Shown in pieces: positions 5,531-43,242 of a stretch of DNA of 64,000 nt. The number at the start of each line of letters is the position of its first letter. The first letter of the stretch is position 1. The translations under genes and the position numbers were made by a program. The notes beneath the pieces were generated by a model, which had not been told where the DNA came from, did no database searches, and saw nothing but the letters and a program-made list of their open reading frames with translations. Source of the DNA: Candidatus Moraniibacteriota bacterium (GTDB lineage Bacteria > Patescibacteriota > Minisyncoccia > Moranbacterales > UBA1568); NCBI GenBank assembly GCA_013334245.1, contig JAAXXZ010000003.1, forward strand, positions 2 through 64,001, read 5' to 3'.

Positions 5531-5650
5531 GTCCCATCTTGATATGGGACGTCCCCCTTTTTCAAAGGTGGAAATCGGTGGTCGTCGACGTTTACGGTGC
5601 ATCTCCCTTTTGTAAAGGAAATATACGGTAGTCCGGGGGAGAGATATGTA
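5531..5650 (+). repeat. repeat family 1, copy C (two hairpins, degenerate tail)
   Basis: gtcccatcttgatatgggac hairpin, ccccctttttcaaaggtgg hairpin, then ctcccttttgtaaaggaaatatacggtagtccgggggagagat. Confidence 0.5.
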
Positions 5651-6014: not shown

Positions 6015-6057
6015 ACGCGGCGTTGATATGAAGTGTTTACAAAGCCTTATCACGTGA

Positions 6058-6084
6058 TTAGCACTCTCACTTGACGAGTGCTAA
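6058..6084 (+). promoter_or_regulatory. second CIRCE operator, upstream of dnaK
   Basis: ttagcactc tcacttgac gagtgctaa, a perfect TTAGCACTC-N9-GAGTGCTAA. Confidence 0.92.
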
Positions 6085-6099
6085 GACAAAATCTATAAT
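6071..6099 (+). promoter_or_regulatory. sigma70-type promoter for dnaK (-35 TTGACG, 17 nt, -10 TATAAT)
   Basis: ttgacg 6071-6076, 17-nt spacer, tataat 6094-6099. The -35 lies inside the CIRCE right half. Confidence 0.75.
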
Positions 6100-6113
6100 G
6101 AATTCGTACGTAC

Positions 6114-6420
6114 GGTATGGCTCCCCGCAAAGCTTCCGAAGTTGGTCGGAGAATATACTCCGCCACTGTCACGGAAACGCCTGCGGCTTAGCCGGAAGAT
6201 AAAGAGTAATCGATAATAAGAAGCTCGCGGGGTGCTCATATTTGTAGCATTTCGCGGACTCAGGAAGAAAGGTATGGCTCCCCGCAAAGCTTCCGAACTC
6301 GGTGAGAGAATATACTTCACCATTGTCACGGAAGCGCCTACGGCTTAGCCGGAAGATAAAGAGTAATCGATAATAAGAAGCTCGCGGGGTGCTCATATTC
6401 GTAGCATTTCGCGGACTCAA
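6114..6420 (+). repeat. tandem duplication (2 x about 157 bp) forming the dnaK 5-prime leader. Each unit carries a 24-codon uORF.
   Basis: Unit 1 6114-6270 and unit 2 6271-about 6419 are about 90% identical. The uORFs are atg 6117..tag 6191 and atg 6274..tag 6348 (MAPRKASE...). Copy 2 is preceded by aggaagaaagg. Confidence 0.8.
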
Positions 6421-8354
6421 TGACGAATATGGCAAAGATACTCGGAATTGATCTCGGGACGACGAACTCGGCGATGGCTATCGTCGAAGGCGGAAGCCCG
6501 TCGATCGTGGAAAACAAGGAAGGCAACCGGACGACCCCGTCCATGGTGGCCATTTCCAAGACGGGCGAACGCCTGGTCGGACTCCTGGCCAAGCGGCAGG
6601 CGGTCACGAACCCGGGCGACACGCTCTTCTCGATCAAACGGCTCATCGGACGCCACTTCAATGACGAGGAAGTGCAGCGTGACCTGAAGACCCTGCCGTA
6701 CAAGATCATCCAGGCGGGTGAGGGGACGAAGATCGTCATGGGCGGCAAGGAATACACCCCGCAGGAAATCTCGGGAATGATTCTCGGCAAGCTCAAGGCC
6801 GATGCGGAAGAGAAGCTCGGCGAGAAGATCACCGAAGCGGTCATCACCGTTCCGGCATACTTCGACGATTCCCAGCGCAAGGCGACGATGGAGGCCGGCG
6901 AGATCGCGGGCCTCAATGTGCGCCGCATCATCAATGAGCCGACGGCGGCCGCGCTCGCGTACGGGTTCAACAAGAAGAAGGACGAGAAGATCGCGGTCTA
7001 TGACCTCGGTGGCGGTACGTTCGACATCTCGATCCTCGAGGTGGCCGAAGACACCGTCGAGGTGAAGTCCACCAACGGCGACACGCACTTGGGAGGTGAC
7101 GACTTCGACCAGCGCATCATGCACTGGATCCTCGACGAGTTCAAGAAGCAGGAAGCCATCGACCTCAGTAAAGACCCGCTCGCGCTCCAGCGTATCAAGG
7201 AAGCGGCCGAAAAGGCGAAGATCGAACTCTCGACCGCGCAGGAGTCCGAAATCAATCAGCCGTTCATCACGAGCGGTGCCGACGGACCGAAGCACCTCGT
7301 CATGAAGCTCACCCGGGCCAAGCTCGAAGAGATCGTGCATGACCTCGTGGAAGCGACCCTCGTGCCGGTCAAGAAGGCACTTGCCGATGCGAAGCTCGAT
7401 GCCAAGGATATCAACGAGGTGGTGCTCGTCGGCGGTATGACGCGCATGCCGCTCGTGTTGGCGACCGTGGAGAAATTCTTCGGCAAGAAACCGAATATCT
7501 CGGTCAATCCGGACGAGGTTGTCGCGATGGGTGCGGCGATCCAGGGCGGCGTGCTCGAAGGGTCGGTCAAGGACGTCTTGCTCCTCGATGTCACCCCGCT
7601 CACGCTCGGTATCGAGACCATGGGCGGCGTGCGCACCGCGCTCATCGAACGCAATACGACCATCCCGGCGTCCAAGTCGCAGACCTTCTCGACCGCGGCG
7701 GACAATCAGCCATCCGTCGAGATCCACGTCTTGCAGGGCGAGCGCGAGATGGCCGCGGACAACAAGTCCCTCGGACGGTTTATCCTCGACGGCATCCCGC
7801 CGGCGCCGCGCGGCATCCCGCAGGTCGAAGTGACCTTCGATATCGACGCCTCGGGCATTCTCTCCGTCACGGCCAAGGACAAGGCGACCAACAAGAGCCA
7901 GTCCATCCGTATCGAGGCCTCTACCGGTCTCAAGGACGAGGAGATCGAGCGCATGAAGAAGGATGCCGAACTCCATGCCGAGGAGGACAAGCACAAGAAG
8001 GAACTCGTCGAGGCGCGCAATATCGCCGACACGCTCTCCTACACGACGGCCAAGGCGATAAAGGATGCGGGCGACAAACTGACCGAGGACGAGAAGAAGC
8101 CGGTCGAAGAAGCCATCGCCGAGCTCGATAAGGTCAAGAACGGCGACGACCTTGAGGCCATCAAGAAGGCGAGCGAAACCCTCTCCGAAGCGGCACAGAA
8201 GATCGGCGAGAAACTCTATGCTGCGGCTCAGGCTGCCAACGAACAACCGACAACTGACAACTCACAACAGGGAAGCGGAACATCGGATTCGGAAGGAGCG
8301 AAGGACGCCGAAGTGGACGATAGCGCCCCGGCAGGTGAGGAGGAAAAGAAGTAG
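6420..8354 (+). CDS. dnaK: molecular chaperone DnaK (Hsp70)
   Basis: 644 aa with [21 protein letters not shown] and other canonical Hsp70 motifs. Acidic C-terminal tail ending EEKK. Confidence 0.97.
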
Positions 8355-8363
8355 GCGTGTACT

Positions 8364-8408
8364 AAGAGCGAGGATTCATTTCCTCGCTCTTATAATTAAT
8401 TGTTTTTT
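8364..8408 (+). terminator. intrinsic terminator after dnaK
   Basis: Perfect 11-bp stem aagagcgagga/tcctcgctctt (8364-8374/8381-8391), loop ttcatt, then an AT/T-rich tract (ttgtttttt). No dnaJ follows. Confidence 0.8.
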
Positions 8409-8410
8409 GT

Positions 8411-9475
8411 ATGGCATTCGCACCAGTTCCAAGAGAGTCAAAAGAACAGATAAATAAGGCTGGAGCATCTCTTGTGAGTAATCCCAATGATAAAGTGGCG
8501 CTTGACTTAGCAAATAGATGGAGGGCATGTCACGCTTATCCTATCAACACTTTTAATGCAACATTAAGAATTAAATCTAAGGCTTTTAATGAATCAGTGA
8601 TTGTTGCGCAACGTTTGAAGCGCATGCCAACGATTGTTGACAAATTGAAAAGATATCCATCCATGAAACTTGCCCGGATGCAAGATATCGGCGGATTGAG
8701 AGCTGTTTTGACTTCAACAAAGTGCGTGTATGAATTGGCGTCATCATACAAAGATACTCGATTTAGGCATGAACTTGTAAACGAAAAGGATTATATTAAA
8801 GAACCGCGAGATGAAGATGGATATAGAAGTATACATTTGATTTTTAAATATAAGGGAGCAAATAGTATTGCTAACAAGTACGATGGACTATTATTGGAAC
8901 TACAGATTCGAACTAAGTTACAACATATTTGGGCGACTGCAGTCGAAACCATGGGAACCTTTCTTGGCCAGGCTTTAAAAGCACGTCTTGGCGATAAAGA
9001 GTGGCAAGATTTTTTTGCTCTTGTATCGTCAGCGTTTGCTATTTCTGAAAGAATGCCCGTTCTTCCACGGCATCGGGAGTTGTCTAAAGAAGATATATAC
9101 AGAGCAATTCAAAAGGCTAATGAGGAACTCGGCGTGTTGGAAAGAATAAAGGGATATGCAGTAGCTGTTGAGGTTATTAGCAATAGACCAGACTCTTCAA
9201 GGAGAGGACATTCATATCATCTGGTGGTTCTGAATTCGGATGCAAGGAGCGTGCAAGTTAAGTCATATAAAAAGGGAGCTGTAAAACAAGCACTGGAGGA
9301 TTATTCTAATATCGAAAATCGAGCTTTAAATGGAGAAAAGATTGAAGCGGTTTTGGTTTCTGCTGGCGGGCCGCTAGCAGTGCTTCGACAAGCTTACCCA
9401 AACTTCTTCCTAGATATTAAAGATTTCGTCGGAAAAATCGAGGATATTGTTAGAAAGGCAAAAAACTTAAAATAA
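8411..9475 (+). CDS. RelA/SpoT-domain nucleotidyltransferase (small alarmone synthetase-like, toxSAS/CapRel-like) with about 150-aa C-terminal extension
   Basis: 354 aa. Synthetase-domain motifs RMQDIGGLRAV (D-x-G-x-R), DGYRSIHLIF (GY-S-H) and ELQIRTKLQHIWA (E-QIRT). The gene sits in an AT-rich island (about 8395-9650) immediately after the dnaK terminator. Confidence 0.8.
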   Translation: MAFAPVPRESKEQINKAGASLVSNPNDKVALDLANRWRACHAYPINTFNATLRIKSKAFNESVIVAQRLKRMPTIVDKLKRYPSMKLARMQDIGGLRAVLTSTKCVYELASSYKDTRFRHELVNEKDYIKEPRDEDGYRSIHLIFKYKGANSIANKYDGLLLELQIRTKLQHIWATAVETMGTFLGQALKARLGDKEWQDFFALVSSAFAISERMPVLPRHRELSKEDIYRAIQKANEELGVLERIKGYAVAVEVISNRPDSSRRGHSYHLVVLNSDARSVQVKSYKKGAVKQALEDYSNIENRALNGEKIEAVLVSAGGPLAVLRQAYPNFFLDIKDFVGKIEDIVRKAKNLK

Positions 9476-9483
9476 AGAAGTGG

Positions 9484-9606
9484 GTCAGGTAGCTTTTTCA
9501 AAATACTACATATAGAATCTTACCGATACGAATGAAACGAGGTAGGGGAACGCGCTTGATGTTATTCTTTCTAGGCTGAAGAACGACCGCGACAAGGGAT
9601 ATGTTT
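9484..9606 (+). repeat. repeat family 4, copy 1: conserved about 120-bp element at the 3-prime end of an AT-rich cassette
   Basis: gtcaggtagctttttcaaaatactacatatagaatcttaccgatacgaatgaaacgaggtaggggaacgcgcttgatgttattctttctaggctgaagaacgaccgcgacaagggatatg. About 88% identical to 16707-16828. Confidence 0.8.
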
Positions 9607-10458: not shown

Positions 10459-10589
10459 TCGGAAGGACCGCGCTAAAACTCGAATCGGATTTTTGGGAAA
10501 AAACAGGCCTCAACAATGTTCCTGACCCCTCTTCGGGACAGAATGGGGTTGTATACAATTATTTGCATAATTGATAATCTGAAGACAAT

Positions 10590-10988: not shown

Positions 10989-11048
10989 ACCCAGCCTGAA
11001 AAAGGTCAGGCATCTTTTCAAGAAGTAACGGCATAAAATCGAACTGAT

Positions 11049-12146
11049 ATGGATGAACCGAAGAAGGGGAATGCACTTGATAGCTTTCTTGCAGGACTGC
11101 GGAACGATATCACGACGAGGGATATGTCTGTCGCGACGGTTTTGAAGTGGGTGGTATTGCTTGTGGTGGCGTATGTCGTCTTGCCGCTTACAATCGTGGC
11201 GGCGCTGTGGTATATCTGGGCCAAGACATCGTGGTCGAAGTCGAAGCGGATACTGGCGACGTTGGCCGTCATTGTGGTCGCGATATGGATTGTTTCTCTT
11301 GGTGCCAACCGAAAGGCGGATGTGCCGGATACGGCGGGATCGCAGCAGCCGGCCACACAGACGCAATCAAATGTGGAGGCTCCGCAGGTTCAGGTTCCCG
11401 TAGTACAGGAAGAGGAAAAAGTGACGGAGCCCGTTTCGGAGGCTGATGACCTGTATAAGGTCGTTGGCGTGACGGACGGGGATACGATCAAGGTGGATAT
11501 CGGGGGGAATATCGAGACGATCAGACTCATCGGCATGGATACGCCGGAAACGGTGGACCCGCGCAAGCCGGTGCAGTGCTTCGGTAAGGAATCGTCCGAC
11601 AAGGCGCGCGAGATGCTCGGCGGGAAGAAGGTCCGTCTGGAAGCGGATCCGACCCAGGGCGAGCGGGACACGTACAATCGTCTGCTTCGATACGTCTATT
11701 TCGAGGACGGCACATCGTTCGACAAGTGGATGATCGCGGAAGGGTATGCCCACGAGTATACCTATCAGAGCAAGCCGTATAAATACCAGGCTGAATATCA
11801 GGCCGCCGAGAAGTCGGCACGCGAGGGGAAAAAAGGCCTGTGGGCCGACGATACCTGCAAAGGGGTTACGGTAACGGCTGCGGTGACCGCCGCCACGACA
11901 GCTGTCGTTGGGAATGCGCTTACCGCCGACACGTCAAAAACAACGTCCTCGGTATCGAATGGTTCCACGACCACGACTCCATCTGCCGGTTCAACGACAT
12001 CGACTTCCGGTGGTGTGGTCAAGAAAAGCTCGACCGGCATATGCCACGCTCCCGGAACGACCTACTACAACCAGACCAAAAGCTTCATAGCTTTCGACAC
12101 CCTCGACGCCTGCCTTGCGAGCGGGGGGCGGCTTCCGAAGAGATAA
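11049..12146 (+). CDS. membrane-anchored thermonuclease (SNase / micrococcal nuclease homologue) with Ser/Thr-rich linker and C-terminal Cys-containing domain
   Basis: 365 aa. N-terminal TM helix, then VTDGDTIKV...IRLIGMDTPE...CFGKES...YNRLLRYVY...WMIAEGYA (SNase OB-fold catalytic motifs). C-terminal TAAVTAATTAVV/STTTT tract and ICHAPGTTYY...LDACLASGGRLPK. Confidence 0.85.
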   Translation: MDEPKKGNALDSFLAGLRNDITTRDMSVATVLKWVVLLVVAYVVLPLTIVAALWYIWAKTSWSKSKRILATLAVIVVAIWIVSLGANRKADVPDTAGSQQPATQTQSNVEAPQVQVPVVQEEEKVTEPVSEADDLYKVVGVTDGDTIKVDIGGNIETIRLIGMDTPETVDPRKPVQCFGKESSDKAREMLGGKKVRLEADPTQGERDTYNRLLRYVYFEDGTSFDKWMIAEGYAHEYTYQSKPYKYQAEYQAAEKSAREGKKGLWADDTCKGVTVTAAVTAATTAVVGNALTADTSKTTSSVSNGSTTTTPSAGSTTSTSGGVVKKSSTGICHAPGTTYYNQTKSFIAFDTLDACLASGGRLPKR

Positions 12147-12299: not shown

Positions 12300-12851
12300 A
12301 TGAATATCTACATTTACGGTGTTCCGGGATCCGGGAAGACGACGCTTTCCAAGTTGCTGGGAGAGTCCTTGGGCAGGGCTTGTTATGAGGCTGATACGGT
12401 ACGCGCAGCAGCGCAGGCTGGAAAGACCTCCGACTCCGACCCATTCTATTTCCTGCCGACGACAGAAGCGTATAAGGCAATCGGAGAACGAACACCGGAA
12501 AACGTCATAAACGGACTGCTGGAAGTTCGAAGGGCGCTCGGCGATTTTGTGGAGCGTGAAGTATCTTTGCGGGAAGATGCAATCATTGAGGCTTCGTTTC
12601 TTGACCCGGTCAGGTTGATGTCGAGTGGCCGGATGTTATTATTGACCATCCCGTCCGAAAGCTTACATCGTGAACGGTTTTTGGTTCATCGCACCGAGAA
12701 GTCCTTCTTGCATGGTCAGTTTGAGAATGCGAGAATCATACAGGAATTTCTTATTGCGGAAGCTGATCGTCTCGCTATCGATGTCGTCGAAAATACGGGT
12801 GATTTGAATGACTTGATGGAGCGCACGCTAAAGTTATTATTCCGGCAATAA
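12300..12851 (+). CDS. P-loop NTPase, putative small nucleotide/nucleoside kinase
   Basis: 183 aa. The N-terminus is IYIYGVPGSGKTTLSKLL (Walker A). Size and layout resemble adenylate-kinase/AAA_33-type kinases. Specificity unknown. Confidence 0.6.
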   Translation: MNIYIYGVPGSGKTTLSKLLGESLGRACYEADTVRAAAQAGKTSDSDPFYFLPTTEAYKAIGERTPENVINGLLEVRRALGDFVEREVSLREDAIIEASFLDPVRLMSSGRMLLLTIPSESLHRERFLVHRTEKSFLHGQFENARIIQEFLIAEADRLAIDVVENTGDLNDLMERTLKLLFRQ

Positions 12852-13053
12852 AATAAGTACCATTTTTGAGAGTAAACTGATAAATCATCTCAAAAAGTGC
12901 AAATCGCGAGGCAACCTTCGGAGAAAAATGAGTGGATCATGCGAACGGTTTCCGCTCTCGACCTCGAATCGACCTTTAGGAAGAGGGGAAGACCCAAAAA
13001 AGGTACCTTACCTGCCCTGTAGAAATCATCTCTGCGTTTCAATTTTTCCGAAC

Positions 13054-13137
13054 CGTCATCCCGGGCTTGACCCGGGATCCAAGGCATAGATTTCAGCTCT
13101 TGCCCGGCGCATGCTCGGGCGGAGGCCGGAATGACAA
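13054..13137 (+). repeat. repeat family 2, copy 1 (MITE-like, imperfect terminal inverted repeats gtcatcccgg / ccggaatgac)
   Basis: gtcatcccgggcttgacccgggatcc...gcccggcgcatgctcgggcggaggccggaatgaca. Related copy at 21588-21696. Confidence 0.6.
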
Positions 13138-13196
13138 TCCCAGGACGGCACTTTTCTACGGAGCATACGAGACCACTTTTCTGGCTGGATGAGCGG

Positions 13197-14291
13197 TCAG
13201 GGAACCCGTTTCCGTCGCCAGACCTTGTGCGGATCGGCGACGAATTTTTCGGAATCGTTGGGTCCGTCTTCGAGTTCGTAGACGCGGAAGGAGTCCGGAT
13301 TCCTCTTTTTGACCAGCGATTCCCCGGCCTTCATCACGTTTTTGCTCCGTTCACGCTGCAATAGATTTTGTTCGATGAATTTGATGTGGGCGGTCCCGTA
13401 GATGAGCGTAATCTTCTTGTAGCCGGCATCGGCAAGGCGGTGAAGTGCGTCCGCGATATGTGCGTCCCTCAGGGCGTTCCATCGCATCTCCTCCGAAATC
13501 GATTCCGGAGTCGGTCCGTCGTCCGTCCGTTCGGAACGTTTGGGCGTTTCCGTCAGCTTCGGGGTGACACCGAATATGAGTCCGGCACCGGCAAGAAGGC
13601 CGAGGCGGAGAAAATTCCGCCGAGACATGTTCGATGCGGCTTCCGTCTTCTTTCCCATGCCGAGGGCGGTAGCTCCTGCTGCCGCGGCTGCGCCGTAAAG
13701 TCCGAGCCGTTTCAGTTTGGCGGACTCGGCGGCGTCCTCTTCGACGGCCTGCTGGTCCATCTCGCTTTCTTTCAGATATTCCTCTGGATCCATTGAATAA
13801 TTCAGGTCGGCACAGGCGAGATCCTTGCCGTATTTGGCGGCCAGCAGCTCGAGCTCATGATGAAAGATGCCGATGTTCCATTCCCGTTCGTGGCCGATGG
13901 CGGTCTGCCGGACCTGTTCGAGATTGTATGCGGGATTGGACGGAGACGGAATGGCTGAGAGGTGCGACGCCGTATCTCGATCGTACATTCCTTGGGCCTC
14001 GGGCGCGTATTCGACGACGACGATATCGCTTTCGCGAATCGCGGATTCGATCTCGCTTCGGAATTCCAGGAACGTTTCGGGAACGTGCATCGTTCCGATG
14101 GCGTTGATGTCGGATGCCCCGATCTTCCAATGCCGCGTCTCCATGTTCGAGCGGATCTGTTCCGATGGGAATTTCCGTTTTGACTCCGACTCACGATCAA
14201 ATTCGCGCGAATGGCCGGTGACGCGCTCGGATGTCGTGGGGATATGCTCGATGCTCGGGAAAGGGAATCGTTCCATAGTCACAGTATACAC
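13197..14291 (-). CDS. TraB/GumN/Tiki-family protein with internal Ala/Gly-rich hydrophobic insertion
   Basis: 364 aa. An N-proximal IGTMHV and DIVVVEYAPE, then LIYGTAHIKF near the C-terminus, match the two GT-H / G-AH motifs of the TraB/PrgY/Tiki fold. Between them lies LGLYGAAAAAGATALG...SRRNFLRLGLLAGAGLIFG, a Tat-signal-like motif but internal. The start codon is uncertain. Confidence 0.45.
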   Translation of the reverse strand: MYTVTMERFPFPSIEHIPTTSERVTGHSREFDRESESKRKFPSEQIRSNMETRHWKIGASDINAIGTMHVPETFLEFRSEIESAIRESDIVVVEYAPEAQGMYDRDTASHLSAIPSPSNPAYNLEQVRQTAIGHEREWNIGIFHHELELLAAKYGKDLACADLNYSMDPEEYLKESEMDQQAVEEDAAESAKLKRLGLYGAAAAAGATALGMGKKTEAASNMSRRNFLRLGLLAGAGLIFGVTPKLTETPKRSERTDDGPTPESISEEMRWNALRDAHIADALHRLADAGYKKITLIYGTAHIKFIEQNLLQRERSKNVMKAGESLVKKRNPDSFRVYELEDGPNDSEKFVADPHKVWRRKRVP

Positions 14292-14432
14292 CGGTATGGG
14301 AACGTTTTCAGCCTTCCGAGGGCATCCCCGGCGATCGGGCGACGGCCTAACGTGATGCGTCGAATGACTGGCGGCGATATTGGTGCGTATATGACAAAGC
14401 CTCGAACATTGCGGTCGAGGCTGTATTGTCTC

Positions 14433-14876
14433 TTAAGCGGATACATTGTTGCGGGCAGGAAAGACGGCGCGGTTCAGTGCTTCCAGCACGTTTCCGATGC
14501 TCTCGATCAGCAGGCAGGTAAACGAGCCCGTTGCGGCGACTGAGAGGTCGAACCACGGAAAACGGCTTTCCGAAAGGACGGTCACGTCCCGACACGCGCT
14601 TCCGTATGAGTATCGGAAGATGCCACCGAGACGAGCGTCGGGAGCCGACGCGCCGGTTATGCTTCCGTACGCCCAGCCGTTCGGTTTCACGTGCACCGTC
14701 GCTTTCGCGGAATAGTCGTTCCGGTCGTGGTATGAAGCATGAAACGTGATACCGTCGCAGGTGCGAAGCGATATCGCCTTACGGTCGATTCCGGCATATC
14801 CGTGAAACTGCGATGAGAGCAGTTTTTCGAAGTTTGCCCGTGCGCGCGGCCAGTTATTCGGATCGATATGGATCAT
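14433..14876 (-). CDS. hypothetical protein
   Basis: ORF with ATG at 14876 (MIHIDPNNW...). The upstream M of the track ORF is TTG-encoded. No recognised domain. Confidence 0.4.
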   Translation of the reverse strand: MIHIDPNNWPRARANFEKLLSSQFHGYAGIDRKAISLRTCDGITFHASYHDRNDYSAKATVHVKPNGWAYGSITGASAPDARLGGIFRYSYGSACRDVTVLSESRFPWFDLSVAATGSFTCLLIESIGNVLEALNRAVFPARNNVSA

Positions 14877-15216
14877 GGTGGTCTTGGGTTGCGGTTTTTG
14901 AGGAACGAGTGCCGGGTACAAGCTAACAGTATCGCCTCTTTCGTGTCAATGCCACGGTTTCGCGCTCCGAATGTCCGATCGGAACCAACCAGAAGGCATG
15001 AGACCAAGGAAAACGTCCTTTCGGTTCAATACCGGGATTCGGATAACGGGCCCTCGCGTCATCTGCCCTCGACTCGCGCCAGAATGCGCCATGACGGGAA
15101 GGGACGCGGTATTCAGGTTCGGTTCTTGTGTATTCGCTGCAAAATGCTATGATTTCAGCGTAAATGTGATGGTCATAACCAGTACTGCCATTTCCAAAAC
15201 ACGTTCCCGATGAGTC

Positions 15217-15350
15217 CGTCTTTGCGAGGACGTATTCGTCCGTGGCAATCCAGGGCTCAAGAATCGGGCATGGACCGCCACGGCCCGCCCTTTGCGAAGG
15301 GCAGGACTCGCGGAGACGGATGGAACGGATCCATGGAAATGGTATAAGAG
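15217..15350 (+). repeat. repeat family 3, copy 1 (candidate structured element: GTCTTTGCGAG ... GGCAATCCA ... CTGGACCGCCACG-hairpin-GACTCGCGGAGAC ... GAAATGGTAT)
   Basis: The central hairpin is gcccgccctttgcgaagggcaggac. The copies at 21378-21512 and 30345-30470 have different hairpin sequences with complementarity preserved. Confidence 0.6.
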
Positions 15351-15356
15351 AAGCAT

Positions 15357-16064
15357 ATGCAAACGGCAAATGTGGAGCTCATGCGGTCAGCTCGGGAGTC
15401 ATTGAAGGGAAAGTGGGGATTGGCTATCGGGGTCACTATCGTCTATTGCATCATCACCGGGGGCCTGCAAAGCATCAAGCAGGTCGGCCCGCTCGTAGCT
15501 ATGCTTGTGTCCGGTCCGCTCGCCGGGGGAATGGCGATATTCACATTGGCACTCGTACGGAATCAGGAGGCGAAGTTCGAGCAGCTCTTTGACGGCTTCA
15601 AATCGTTCGCGACGTATTTCGTCGCCTATCTCCTGATGCTCGTCTTCATACTTCTCTGGTCGCTTCTGCTTATCGTCCCGGGAATCATCGCGGCGATTTC
15701 GTATTCGATGACCTATTTCATCATCGCGGACAATCCGACGGTTTCGCCTTCCGACGCGCTCAAGCGGAGCAAAGAAATGATGCAGGGCAACAAGGGGAAG
15801 TTCTTCGGTCTCCAGTTACGATTCCTTGGTTGGGCGATCCTGTGCGTTTTGACCGCGGGTATCGGTTTTATCTGGCTTATCCCGTATATTCAGGTCAGCG
15901 TCGCCAAGTTCTATGAGGATTTGAAAGGAACCACCGCCGCGCCAAGTGCCCCAGCTGAGCCGGTCGCCGCGTCGCCGACGGCACCCGTATCTGATGCGCC
16001 GGTAACACAAGTGAAGGACGCCAAAGTGGACGACGGTACTCCGGTGAGTGAGGAAAAGAAGTAA
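15357..16064 (+). CDS. integral membrane protein, DUF975-like
   Basis: 235 aa. N-terminal MRSARESLKGKWGLAIGVTIVY followed by several TM segments matches the DUF975 pattern from memory. C-terminal Ala/Pro-rich tail ending EEKK. Confidence 0.65.
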   Translation: MQTANVELMRSARESLKGKWGLAIGVTIVYCIITGGLQSIKQVGPLVAMLVSGPLAGGMAIFTLALVRNQEAKFEQLFDGFKSFATYFVAYLLMLVFILLWSLLLIVPGIIAAISYSMTYFIIADNPTVSPSDALKRSKEMMQGNKGKFFGLQLRFLGWAILCVLTAGIGFIWLIPYIQVSVAKFYEDLKGTTAAPSAPAEPVAASPTAPVSDAPVTQVKDAKVDDGTPVSEEKK

Positions 16065-16072
16065 GGAACGAA

Positions 16073-16100
16073 GGGCGGAGGGATTTACCCTCCGCCTTTG
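16073..16100 (+). terminator. intrinsic terminator after the DUF975 gene
   Basis: Stem ggcggaggg/ccctccgcc (16074-16082/16088-16096), loop attta, then tttg. Confidence 0.6.
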
Positions 16101-16176
16101 CTAATCGGGAACAAGAGCCAGAAAAATAAATAATATGTAATTATCGTATTGAAGCAGAAATGAATATTTCAAATTT

Positions 16177-16695
16177 ATGGAAAAAAAATTAGCGAAAAAG
16201 GAAACACTCGTAATAAGCGCGTGGATTTGTGCAGGAAAATCATATTTGACGAAGAAATATACGAATATAATTGAGCTACCGAGCGGCGACTACAAGTATA
16301 TTTTGACGGACGAACAAAAGGCCGTTGTGAACAAGGAAAGCCTGAAATCGACAAAAAGGGAAATTAATCCCGCTTGGCCAAGAAATTATTATGATGCGAT
16401 TCTTACAGAAGTAAAAAACGGAAAATATGACATTATTCTTATCGCACCATGTATGCCTTTCTCAGAGATGCGGGACTATGGCATAAAATTCGTATTGGCG
16501 TATCCGGATCCGACGTGCAAGGAAGAGTATATTCAACGGGCAAGAAAGAGAGGTGCGAATGAAGAATTTGTAAAAAGAATCGAGACAAACATTCAGAGCG
16601 ATTTCGAAGATTTCGTAAACCAGCCGAACGAAAAGCTCATCATGCAACCGGGAGAATACTTAGAAGACGCCCTCATCAGAGCCGGTATATTATAG
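16177..16695 (+). CDS. small P-loop protein (putative kinase/NTPase) in an AT-rich cassette
   Basis: 172 aa with Walker-A-like SAWICAGKSY near the N-terminus and hydrophobic-Asp DIILIAP (Walker-B-like). The AT-rich island is about 16105-17100. Function unknown. Confidence 0.5.
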   Translation: MEKKLAKKETLVISAWICAGKSYLTKKYTNIIELPSGDYKYILTDEQKAVVNKESLKSTKREINPAWPRNYYDAILTEVKNGKYDIILIAPCMPFSEMRDYGIKFVLAYPDPTCKEEYIQRARKRGANEEFVKRIETNIQSDFEDFVNQPNEKLIMQPGEYLEDALIRAGIL

Positions 16696-16706
16696 CCGGT
16701 AAAGGT

Positions 16707-16828
16707 GTCAGGTACCTTTTTTCAAAATACTGCATAGAGAATCTCACCGATACGAATGAATCGAAGCGGGGAATGCGCTTGATGTTATTCTTTCCGGCTA
16801 GAAGAACGACCGCGACGAGGGATATGTC
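16707..16828 (+). repeat. repeat family 4, copy 2 (starts with terminator-like hairpin aaaggt-gtcagg-tacctttttt)
   Basis: gtcaggtaccttttttcaaaatactgcatagagaatctcaccgatacgaatgaatcgaagcggggaatgcgcttgatgttattctttccggctagaagaacgaccgcgacgagggatatg, followed by a tandem ccctttcgattgga x2. Confidence 0.8.
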
Positions 16829-17110
16829 CCTTTCGATTGGACCCTTTCGATTGGAAATGCTATCGAAAAAACGTAACATAATAATGCGGTCGTCAGTTGG
16901 TGTTACAATATATGCACCGGGTGACGCGAAGTGACGGCCGTCCGCTCATGTCACCTGAAAAAGAGCAGAGCCAAAAGCCGGATACATTTATTGAACATTT
17001 TTTTACGAAGACTCACGAAAAAATGTCGAAAAAGATTTAATACAAAGCTGCTCGACTCCGCCCTCTGGTCTTTGGGTGAAATCATCAGACCATAACGCTG
17101 TCTATCTATT

Positions 17111-17536
17111 ATGACCGAAGAAACCGGGATGCTTTCCGATTGTTTCTATAGGACGAGTGCCAAGGCTATGATTCTCGATGAAGGGGGGCGGTTCTTGCTC
17201 ATGCTCGAAAAGAAAGGTGTGTGGGAACTTCCTGGAGGAGGCTTGGATTTCGGCGAGAGTCCGCAGCAGTGTCTTGCCCGTGAGATACAAGAAGAAATGG
17301 GGCTCGAGGTGGTCCACATCGCCGAGAGGCCGAAGTATTTTCTGACGGCCCCGCGGAGGGACGGCCAAGGCTGGATCGCGAACATCATCTACGAGGTACG
17401 GGTCGCGAATCTGGATTTCGTACCGTCGGACGAATGCGTGGAAATTCGGTTTTTCACGGCGGTAGAGGCGTCGAAGGAGAACCTCCTCCCGCACGTGAGG
17501 GAGTTCGTGAAACTGTTTAATCCGACGCGGGAGTGA
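17111..17536 (+). CDS. Nudix hydrolase
   Basis: 141 aa. The Nudix box is GGGLDFGESPQQCLAREIQEEMGLEV. Confidence 0.85.
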   Translation: MTEETGMLSDCFYRTSAKAMILDEGGRFLLMLEKKGVWELPGGGLDFGESPQQCLAREIQEEMGLEVVHIAERPKYFLTAPRRDGQGWIANIIYEVRVANLDFVPSDECVEIRFFTAVEASKENLLPHVREFVKLFNPTRE

Positions 17537-17552
17537 TAATCTGCTATTTACT

Positions 17553-18092
17553 ATGAAACAAACTATCACCATCATCGGTACGCTTCATGCGGGGTTCACA
17601 CCGGAGGCGGAACTTCGTGCGATCATCGAGCGATATCATCCGGATTTGGTACTGGTGGAGATGGCGCAGGAAGACATGGAAAGTGGAAATATCGCCGGCT
17701 ATCCTCCGGAGATGGTCTTCGCATGCCGTTGGGCGGTCGAAAACGGTGTTTCCGTGAAGGGATTCGATTCGAAAATAGACACGTTCCGTGGTGGATTCTC
17801 GAAGGAGAGGAACGACGAGATAGTGCGAAAGCAGGGCGAGATAATCGCGAAGCATGACTGGAAGGATTTCAATCGTCCGGAGATCGATAGGTTGCTCGAT
17901 ATCCCGGAGCTTTCCAATTCGATCGACCCCGAACTGGAGGCGGAGCGTGAGGCGTTGATGCTCAAAAAAATCAGGGATTCGATCGGAGACGCCTCCGCCG
18001 TGCTTGTTCTTACGGGATGCGGACATCTGGATTTCTTGGAAAAAGCTATGCCGGATGCGGTACTGCCGCTTCGCTGCGGCACGAAGGAATAA
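17553..18092 (+). CDS. mini TraB/GumN/Tiki-family protein
   Basis: 179 aa with IIGTLHAG (motif 1), DLVLVEM and VLVLTGCGHLDFL (motif 2). Confidence 0.5.
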   Translation: MKQTITIIGTLHAGFTPEAELRAIIERYHPDLVLVEMAQEDMESGNIAGYPPEMVFACRWAVENGVSVKGFDSKIDTFRGGFSKERNDEIVRKQGEIIAKHDWKDFNRPEIDRLLDIPELSNSIDPELEAEREALMLKKIRDSIGDASAVLVLTGCGHLDFLEKAMPDAVLPLRCGTKE

Positions 18093-21377: not shown

Positions 21378-21512
21378 CGGTCTTTGCGAGACATACATAT
21401 GTTCATAGGTGTGTCGTGGCAATCCATTCGTATCCATTAGGAATCGGATACGGGGGCATATTTCTGGACCGCCACGCCCCGCGCTTTGCAAAGAGCGGGA
21501 CTCGCGGAGACA
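21378..21512 (+). repeat. repeat family 3, copy 2
   Basis: ggtctttgcgagac...gtcgtggcaatccattcg...ctggaccgccacgccccgcgctttgcaaagagcgggactcgcggagac. Confidence 0.6.
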
Positions 21513-21587
21513 GAGTAGTGTTGCGATGATACGCATGTTCGGATGAATTAGAGCCTATCTCAAAAATACGACAAGCACGGTTTTGTT

Positions 21588-43110: not shown

Positions 43111-43217
43111 GTCATGTCCGTCGCCGGACATGACACCCCCTTTTTCAAAGGGGGAAACCTGATAGGCCGCTTTCCTACTCTGGGAAAGGGAGTACCGAGT
43201 CAAAGAGGGGAGGGATT
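43111..43217 (+). repeat. repeat family 1, copy D
   Basis: gtccgtcgccggac hairpin, ccccctttttcaaaggggg hairpin, then ctttcctactctgggaaagggagtaccgagtcaaagaggggagggatttg. Confidence 0.6.
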
Positions 43218-43242
43218 TGAAATGATCATGTAACCGTCAATC

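Follow-up and report, generated by a model that had tools for sequence, protein, structure and literature searches.

Repetitive extragenic palindromes (REPs) lie just past the stop codons of genes in Escherichia coli, Pseudomonas, Stenotrophomonas and Marinomonas, as single units or in inverted pairs that fold into long hairpins, and in the units known as REPtrons the gene for a cognate Y1/HUH transposase, a REP-associated tyrosine transposase (RAYT), sits between inverted copies. The palindrome of a REP has a conserved GTAG or CGTC tetranucleotide at its foot, the Marinomonas REPs are concentrated near their tnpA gene, and HUH enzymes cleave and transfer strands at hairpins (PMC8266576), while RAYTs are generally regarded as domesticated enzymes that move REP and REPIN units only (PMC5581495). 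Here we describe a related arrangement in a stretch of 64,000 nucleotides (hereafter the window) from contig JAAXXZ010000003.1 of a Candidatus Moraniibacteriota bacterium (assembly GCA_013334245.1). In this window, a repeat of about 120 bp lies behind two AT-rich, unrelated genes that encode a RelA/SpoT-like synthetase (cargo 1) and a 172-aa Walker-A protein (cargo 2), and a sequence-only reading had taken the repeat for the shared 3' tail of a family of mobile gene cassettes. We favor a different explanation, to which we assign a probability of roughly 0.65: the repeat is a composite scar, made up of a REP and the head of a gene, that marks recombination junctions in a hotspot of gene turnover behind dnaK.

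Other described systems resemble this locus in part. Integron cassettes with attC sites, such as the Vibrio cholerae repeats (VCRs), also form same-strand arrays of unrelated small accessory genes separated by related spacers of about 120 bp, with AT-rich cargo that varies between strains; here, however, neither an IntI nor attC structure or core sites were found, the repeat is not carried with the gene, and most of it is the coding sequence of a neighboring gene. Hypervariable islands and defense hotspots that are anchored on a conserved gene and contain repeated fragments of gene ends, such as the tRNA-proximal islands of Prochlorococcus, share with our locus a fixed site by a highly conserved gene, strain-specific cargo that includes defense and nucleotide-metabolism genes, and repeated gene-end fragments as footprints, but the anchor here is dnaK rather than a tRNA, the footprints are REPs together with heads and tails of several genes, and no integrase or phage remnants were seen. 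Lastly, miniature inverted-repeat transposable elements (MITEs) such as Correia elements are likewise short non-coding repeats that occur in several copies beside genes and have a hairpin-forming end, yet the 120-bp unit has neither terminal inverted repeats nor a target-site duplication, and only its REP head belongs to a mobile family.

A REP head and a gene head in the 120-bp repeat

Copies 1 and 2 of the repeat (9484-9606 and 16707-16828), direct copies 7.2 kb apart that start 0-10 nt 3' of the stop codon of an AT-rich open reading frame (ORF), are 88.6% identical over 123 nt by self-BLAST (E 6e-35), so the shared element noticed from the sequence alone is real. A third, diverged copy (11005-11127), 62-71% identical to the others, was recovered by repeat search, nhmmer and BLAST. 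It has a RidA gene in front of it and no AT-rich gene upstream, and it runs straight on into an ORF with a staphylococcal nuclease (SNase) domain. No copies beyond these three were found in the window by nhmmer, and a fourth is present in L014, a related Moranbacteria metagenome-assembled genome (MAG; related loci are given L numbers throughout). All copies lie on the same strand as the genes downstream of them. The sequence-only reading would have been undone by a repeat confined to two places beside syntenic core genes; instead, there are more copies and the cargo is variable.

The first 23-25 nt or so of the element match AGAAAAGGGGTCAGGTACCTTTT, the REP-type terminal repeat of a family of Y1/HUH transposases of 224-226 aa, and this REP head aligns with the terminal repeats of the RAYT genes themselves. 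The remaining ~95 nt consist of a -10-like box and the first ~25 codons of a gene for a membrane-anchored nuclease, which is intact only at copy 3 (Table 1). In a phmmer search with the first 100 aa of this ORF, matches aligned from their own residue 3, among them P0241 (339 aa, SNase-type; E 4e-15) and P0242 (E 4e-11), and the motif xNA[LF]DxFLxGLxxD is common to these two proteins, to copy 3 and to the conceptual translations of copies 1, 2 and that of L014. Because the N-termini of P0241 and P0242 align and the motif is shared, copy 3 is the true 5' end of the nuclease gene. By contrast with this intact gene, the copies 1, 2 and L014 have lost the start codon, carry a 1-nt or 2-nt indel and TAG codons, and lose all similarity after about codon 27, just ahead of the membrane helix. 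Differences between copies fall on the three codon positions in the ratios 7:2:8, 5:2:6 and 6:2:6, a bias that is not statistically significant with 13-17 differences, and the avoidance of position 2 is as expected for former coding sequence. Judged by these features, copies 1 and 2 are truncated, decayed heads of a paralogue of the nuclease gene and recent duplicates of each other. Since ~95 of the 120 nt are the promoter region and first codons of a downstream-type gene, the element is a 5' gene relic rather than a 3' tail. Two other coding interpretations were set aside: a small ORF from the ATG in ..GAATGAA.. was rejected because its peptide is not the same in any copy (MKRGRGTRLMLFFLG*, MNRSGECA*; asterisk, stop), and a likeness between the second half of the element and the RAYT N-terminus (ALDVI versus APDVI) was judged to be chance because tblastn found only the transposase relic at 12915-13007.

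These results bear directly on the idea of an integron-like system, in which the element would be an attC- or VCR-like site for a tyrosine or serine recombinase encoded elsewhere. Two unrelated AT-rich genes do have a common 3' neighbor that is VCR-like in length and identity, and their left flanks are alike too (8297-8400 versus 16010-16099, 79% over 58 nt). This left-flank likeness turned out to be between the last ~55 nt of dnaK with its terminator and the last ~55 nt of a DUF975 gene with its terminator. However, no recombinase or integrase domain was detected in the ~40 window ORFs scanned, a scan that was not exhaustive, or in the array genes of L002, L003, L014 and L153; the element has no element-wide attC-like palindrome, no R''/R' cores, no GTTRRRY at its 3' end and no stable single-strand fold; and the third copy, which is without cargo, is the start of a working gene. 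An exact two-part pattern (GGGGAAYGCNCTTGAT..RAGGGATATG) gave zero matches in viral, genome and metagenome collections, although it is too strict and misses even the L014 copy, and the literature on integron attC sites in Patescibacteria yielded nothing relevant. The element also does not travel with the 172-aa gene outside the clade. Taken together, we regard an integron-like origin as already largely refuted and highly improbable.

A small RNA (sRNA) or shared 3' untranslated regulatory RNA, also suggested from the sequence, fares scarcely better. In its favor, the element is intergenic, lies on the same strand in each case, starts behind a hairpin and includes a local stem (TTCTT..AAGAA), in place of which copy 3 has a different stem; the internally self-complementary stretch that had been pointed out (gttattctttc...gaagaacgac) is indeed present. 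Against this, whole-element folds are no better than those of shuffled sequence, with z-scores for copies 1, 2 and 3 of +1.46, -0.28 and +0.94 on the plus strand and +1.55, -0.03 and +1.44 on the minus strand. RNAalifold gave -14 kcal/mol with two compensatory pairs from only three sequences, and even the four known are too few for a real covariation test. Rfam searches of the whole window at the gathering threshold and of 8-18 kb at E up to 10 returned only two tRNAs, both elsewhere, and 15 REP-bearing loci gave tRNAs only. The conservation pattern, moreover, fits a protein N-terminus, and overall an RNA encoded by the repeat seems very improbable. A riboswitch or leader was dropped because the element folds no better than shuffled sequence. 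The opening hairpin, which had been described as strongly terminator-like in copy 2, is weak there: its RNA folding energies are -2.9, -4.8 and -9.7 kcal/mol in copies 1, 2 and 3, and only the copy 3 hairpin passed a terminator scan.

Of the delivery routes put forward by the sequence-only reading, a MITE comes closest, as the REP head does belong to a family of small mobile repeats. The 120-bp unit itself does not fit: no terminal inverted repeats are common to the copies, the inverted pairs that exist differ between them, copy 3 is without any, and there is no target-site duplication.

REPs and RAYT-like transposases in Moranbacteria

The motif GCCAGAAAAGGGGTCAGGTACCTTTT, which is the start of the window element, stands at junctions between array genes in L002, L003, L012, L014 and L029. 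Exact copies of the 23-mer AGAAAAGGGGTCAGGTRCCTTTT are present in 62 metagenome contigs, which range in GC content from 0.30 to 0.73; the flanks of the motif are unrelated, and it often lies 0-20 nt from a stop codon. A single REP forms a hairpin of -7.6 kcal/mol and an inverted doublet, as seen in L093, L096, L103, L108, L128, L139 and L141, a 23-bp perfect hairpin of -51 kcal/mol. We also observed that in several contigs the TAG stop of the upstream ORF is formed with the first two bases of the 23-mer, and that stuttered partial copies (gaaaaggggtcag gaaaagg ...) often stand ahead of the 23-mer in the L091-L152 contigs, for example at L103 6540-6614, L111 2642-3496 and L145 3328-4113. An 18-mer of the REP had zero matches in IMG/VR, and a literature search for the motif string returned unrelated KpnI primers only.

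ORFs of 224-226 aa that lie between inverted copies of the 23-mer encode Y1_Tnp proteins by Pfam (E 1e-14 to 1e-19), and the gene has inverted REPs on both sides in L097, L106, L111/L144, L112, L130, L145 and L153. The sole relative of these proteins in the PDB is E. coli TnpA_REP (4ER8, E 2e-5), and they score 75-76 bits with the NCBIfam model REP_Tyr_transpos, just under its curated cut-off of 80 bits, whereas the IS200 model gives them 19-27 bits. A total of 5,977 proteins belong to the family at E 1e-10 or better, and the names given to some of them in databases are 'REP-associated tyrosine transposase [Patescibacteria group]' and 'transposase [Candidatus Moranbacteria]'. At the left end of the transposase gene, ~12 nt separate a REP from an extended -10 box (TGATATACT or TGATACAAT), which a short leader joins to the ATG, and at the right end the REP overlaps the last transposase codons (..RGRPKKGT-stop).

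This family is unusual among known REP/RAYT systems. The protein is longer than the 165-aa E. coli TnpA_REP and has a C-terminal extension of ~85 aa, the right REP encloses its stop codon, the motif is without the GTAG or CGTC tag, and the 23-mer is exactly conserved at 30-73% GC. A further peculiarity of the lineage is a fixed home behind dnaK: the dnaK-downstream region is the home locus of the RAYT-like transposase in Moranbacteria. An intact RAYT with its REPs sits between dnaK and DUF1189 in another Moranbacteria MAG, GCA_018061645.1, L012 and L014 contain RAYT derivatives with internal deletions, and the window contains only a relic of the transposase, with a REP fused to a gene-head fragment as its 120-bp repeat. 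The 5-7 diverged REP-like matches in the window all fall within 9.4-17 kb; ~0.02 matches would be expected by chance at up to five mismatches. REPs cluster near the transposase gene as they do in Marinomonas.

The left end of the RAYT gene also underlies an alternative in which selection maintains the repeat as a portable regulatory module whose terminator, promoter and 5' leader insulate the foreign gene and drive the gene downstream (PP2C for copy 1, NUDIX for copy 2, the nuclease for copy 3). The architecture of the repeat is that of the RAYT left ends, with a -10-like hexamer conserved at the promoter-box position in four copies (TAGAAT in copy 1, GAGAAT in copy 2, TAAAAT in copy 3 and TAGAAT in L014), the copies are co-oriented with the downstream genes, and copy 3 stands exactly at the nuclease start. 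A sigma-70 scan, however, called no promoter at the element, which lacks a -35 box and a TG extension; between copy 2 and NUDIX lie 285 nt of other debris, hairpins among it; and the ~75 nt past the box are coding-derived and decayed, with no conserved RNA fold (z near or above 0). We consider a selected regulatory module fairly unlikely. As parts of a composite scar, the REP hairpin is probably a weak terminator for the cargo gene and the relic promoter may still read into the gene downstream.

Gene turnover between dnaK and DUF1189

Both cargo ORFs have a GC content of 0.40, compared with 0.53-0.60 in neighboring genes, and both assignments made from the sequence alone held up, with a RelA_SpoT domain in cargo 1 and a Walker A motif (AWICAGKT) in cargo 2 (Table 1). 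Cargo 2 has no Pfam domain; the best Foldseek matches of its predicted AlphaFold model are hCINAP, UCK2, AK1 and GMP kinase. It has 150 homologs at 71-100% identity, the closest of which are named Candidatus Moranbacteria. A 961-nt contig from SRR11449211 matches the window without a difference over cargo 2 and the start of the element. In three other Moranbacteria assemblies, the 172-aa gene is found in a same-strand array of small accessory genes (MNT/HepT, SLFN_AlbA_2, Fic, NUDIX, NTPase, PRTase, HD_4 and CYTH) directly behind hrcA-grpE-dnaK, and its upstream neighbors are unrelated across these three genomes. Homologs at 75-79% identity elsewhere lie beside an NT5C-like gene and IS21 or in a prophage- or ICE-like (integrative and conjugative element) region.

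A scan with the DnaK C-terminus returned 80 Moranbacteria loci. In the closest relative, L011, which is 95.5% identical at the nucleotide level over hrcA-dnaK, cargo 1 is absent from its site, and a different, very AT-rich gene for a 208-aa protein follows the dnaK terminator. Seven relatives have seven different genes at this position. Because the occupant behind the dnaK terminator varies between relatives, both cargo genes are accessory genes in a hotspot. They are foreign and turn over between relatives, and this locus is also home to the REP family and its transposase. A clean empty site was found for neither cargo gene, only alternative occupancy. In the window, DUF1189, DsbA and RF lie at 23.0, 33.0 and 34.6 kb. 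The PP2C and NUDIX genes that flank the repeats, previously taken for core genes, are themselves part of the variable array.

Repeated gene ends are not limited to the 120-bp element. L002 and L014 have a 'type B' repeat, of which the window retains a relic (17023-17085); it corresponds to the final ~27 codons of the genes for a family of 200-aa proteins, and its interpretation in L002 as a leader peptide (MNVEKFSDTKMLDFALWSLGAIM) was dropped on that account. Truncated heads of cutA (MNFIIIYIT..) are repeated upstream of the intact gene behind dnaK in L063 (2940, 3895 and 6831) and L043 (~13830), L079 has five copies of a 60-100-nt repeat behind dnaK (12742-17738), and many other Moranbacteria loci have direct repeats of 40-250 nt in this place. 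Repeat-punctuated arrays seem to be general in the Moranbacteria lineage.

The arrangement of these arrays invites the suggestion that the Y1 transposase moves REP-bounded single genes as single-stranded units and so assembles behind dnaK an array like that of an integron. A REP follows array genes at 0-20 nt from the stop, in the orientation of the gene; the 172-aa gene lies between direct REPs in L002 and L003, with unrelated upstream neighbors; the RAYT home locus is inside the array; and HUH enzymes cleave and transfer strands at hairpins (PMC8266576). Extended to Moranbacteria and perhaps other Patescibacteria, RAYT and REPs would together form a gene-capture and shuffling platform at a fixed site behind dnaK, with REPs as the junctions for insertion, swap and deletion of single defense and nucleotide-metabolism genes, an integron analogue by single-strand HUH chemistry. 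However, homologs of the 172-aa gene outside Moranbacteria are without a REP, the 120-bp element is absent beside those in L005-L010, the same REP-bounded unit was never found at two loci, RAYTs are generally held to be domesticated (PMC5581495), and homologous recombination between dispersed repeats accounts for the same pattern. Our analysis gave no direct support for active gene capture, and we judge both the capture mechanism and the broader platform improbable. What stands of the proposed mobile cassettes is that the cargo was acquired horizontally and is variable; the 120-bp unit is not a recombination site that the cassettes carry.

Coordinates of the features discussed are collected in Table 1.

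Table 1. Features of the dnaK-downstream array in the window (asterisk, stop codon).
Position	Strand	Feature	Evidence
8297..8400	+	dnaK 3' tail and GC-rich terminator, left flank of cargo 1	Pfam HSP70; translation; resembles 16010-16099 and dnaK ends of L011, L012, L014
8411..9475	+	Cargo 1: RelA/SpoT-like synthetase, single-gene anti-phage defense candidate	Pfam RelA_SpoT 5e-16; PADLOC PDC-S33 8e-117, full length; phrog_4773 3e-99
9475..9606	+	Copy 1: diverged REP head (9475-9497), -10-like TAGAAT box, pseudogenized anchor/SNase gene head (TNETR*GNALDVILSRLKNDRDKGY)	Self-comparison, alignment, conceptual translation
10513..10535	-	Degenerate REP-like motif, 5 mismatches to 23-mer, between PP2C and RidA	
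10996..11127	+	Copy 3: REP head (10996-11018, part of RidA terminator hairpin), TAAAAT box, genuine start ATG 11049 and first 26 codons of nuclease gene	N-terminus conserved in P0241, P0242
11049..12146	+	Membrane-anchored staphylococcal-nuclease-domain protein, intact parent-type gene of the element's 3' two-thirds	Pfam SNase 6.5e-25; phmmer
12915..13020	+	RAYT-like Y1 transposase relic: last 31 codons (..LESTFRKRGRPKKGT) at 12915-13007, overlapping a degenerate inverted REP	tblastn 64.5% over 31 aa to L111 RAYT, E 7e-5
13165..13185	-	REP-like motif 11 nt past stop of minus-strand gene 13197-14291	
16010..16099	+	DUF975 gene end: dnaK-like tail (..KDAKVDDGTPVSEEKK*) and terminator, left flank of cargo 2	Also on L012 DUF975 gene
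16115..16126	+	Left half of REP (GAGCCAGAAAAA) upstream of cargo 2	Homologous to complete REPs upstream of same gene in L002, L003
16177..16695	+	Cargo 2: 172-aa Walker-A protein, nucleoside/nucleotide-kinase-like fold	phrog_4182 3e-24; AF2 model pLDDT 88
16698..16828	+	Copy 2: REP head (16698-16720, 3 mismatches to 23-mer), GAGAAT box, frameshifted TAG-containing gene head (GNALDVILSG*KNDRDEGY)	Self-comparison, alignment, conceptual translation
16829..17095	+	Junction debris after copy 2: tandem 14-nt repeat (16829-16856), conserved hairpin (16920-16955), degenerate REP (16967-16993), C-terminal relic of 200-aa family (17023-17085, ..NTKLLDSALWSLGEIIRP*)	
17111..17536	+	NUDIX gene; with upstream debris syntenic with L014, L002	

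Several further observations concern the cargo genes and their flanks. Outside Moranbacteria, homologs of the 172-aa gene directly follow a gene for an NT5C-like nucleotidase (L005 921-2018, L006 9437-10534 and L010 1948-3039), a gene order that points to a paired nucleotide-modifying module derived from mobile elements or phages. Models of 2-phosphoglycerate kinase and mevalonate-3-phosphate kinase weakly match another small P-loop protein in the window (183 aa, 12300-12851), whose gene has 91.6% nucleotide identity in L012, where a REP comes next. The DnaK-like tail KDAKVDDGTPVSEEKK and its stop, together with a dnaK-like terminator, occur on DUF975 in the window and in L012 (~6370-6470) and not in L002, and in the window both DnaK-like ends, those of dnaK and DUF975, precede AT-rich foreign genes. 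A recent duplication as the source of the tail on DUF975 was dropped, since L012 carries the same tail, which is therefore older. Directly after copy 2, the 14-nt tandem repeat is perfect (CCCTTTCGATTGGA x2), and the nearby hairpin has a conserved loop (GACGGCCGTCCGC) with a counterpart at 8426-8462 in L014. Elsewhere in the window, a tandem duplication with a 157-nt period (6114-6262 and 6271-6419, 93% identical) lies immediately upstream of the dnaK start and just after a CIRCE-like inverted repeat (6056-6103), where L011 has a single copy. A 50-nt GC-rich repeat (TGGACCGCCACGGCCCGCCCTTTGCGAAGGGCAGGACTCGCGGAGACGGA; 88% identical) is found on either side of the distal part of the array (15271-15320 and 21465-21514), and a 50-nt hairpin repeat (CTCCCTTTCAAAAAGGGAG...GGGGAGGGATTTG) with no Rfam match occurs at three distant places (1870-1919, 5599-5648 and 43170-43219).

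Proposed recombination at REPs behind dnaK

Around the 172-aa gene, L002 and L003 share with the window only the REP, and not the rest of the element, and homology to the window stops at REPs on both sides of that gene. Foreign single genes accumulate between dnaK and DUF1189, where homology blocks start and stop at REPs. In our explanation, REPs, via RAYT cleavage or simply as dispersed homology, would promote the exchange, duplication and deletion of blocks. The highly conserved dnaK would serve as a further homology anchor for block exchange, and the heads and tails of genes would be left behind as scars. The direct copies 1 and 2 could themselves mediate deletion or duplication of the segment between them. 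We infer this recombination mechanism, and any present regulatory role of the scars, from the arrangement of genes and repeats.

Several points weigh against a composite scar. No intact RAYT is present in the 64-kb window. The REP heads in the window are diverged, with 3-5 mismatches to the 23-mer in copies 1 and 2 and more in copy 3, whose head was found only by a scan for the pattern GTCAGG..TTTT. The canonical 23-mer AGAAAAGGGGTCAGGTACCTTTT is without the GTAG or CGTC tag of the classical REP superfamilies, and the GTAG that can be read in the window occurs in copy 1 only, by happenstance. In addition, the RAYT-like proteins fall just short of the curated NCBIfam threshold, and the codon-position bias that speaks for former coding sequence falls short of significance. 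The identical right boundary of copies 1, 2 and L014 (..GAYRAGGGRYAT) could be the defined end of an element rather than one inherited truncation, and the promoter and terminator roles are predicted from sequence, with no promoter called there by the sigma-70 scan. Nonetheless, four things are directly observed: the head is a REP, it is associated with RAYTs, the rest of the element derives from coding sequence, and the cargo varies. It is the composite scar that accommodates them at the probability given above.

With the repeat read as a composite scar, the apparent cassette tail is explained without need of a new mobile system. The genomes of the candidate phyla radiation (CPR) bacteria, also known as Patescibacteria, are small, and mobile elements are thought to be scarce in them. 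The RAYT/REP family described here is large (~6,000 proteins at E 1e-10 or better), occurs commonly in CPR bacteria and is seemingly unstudied, as are its 23-nt REP, identical at 30-73% GC and overlapping the transposase stop, and the conserved place of the transposase behind dnaK. Seemingly unstudied as well is the use of this same interval as a hotspot, where PDC-S33 defense candidates and phage-type genes turn over between very close relatives. A fixed, REP-marked hotspot of this kind would help to find accessory and defense genes in CPR bacteria and to ask whether REPs promote their turnover.

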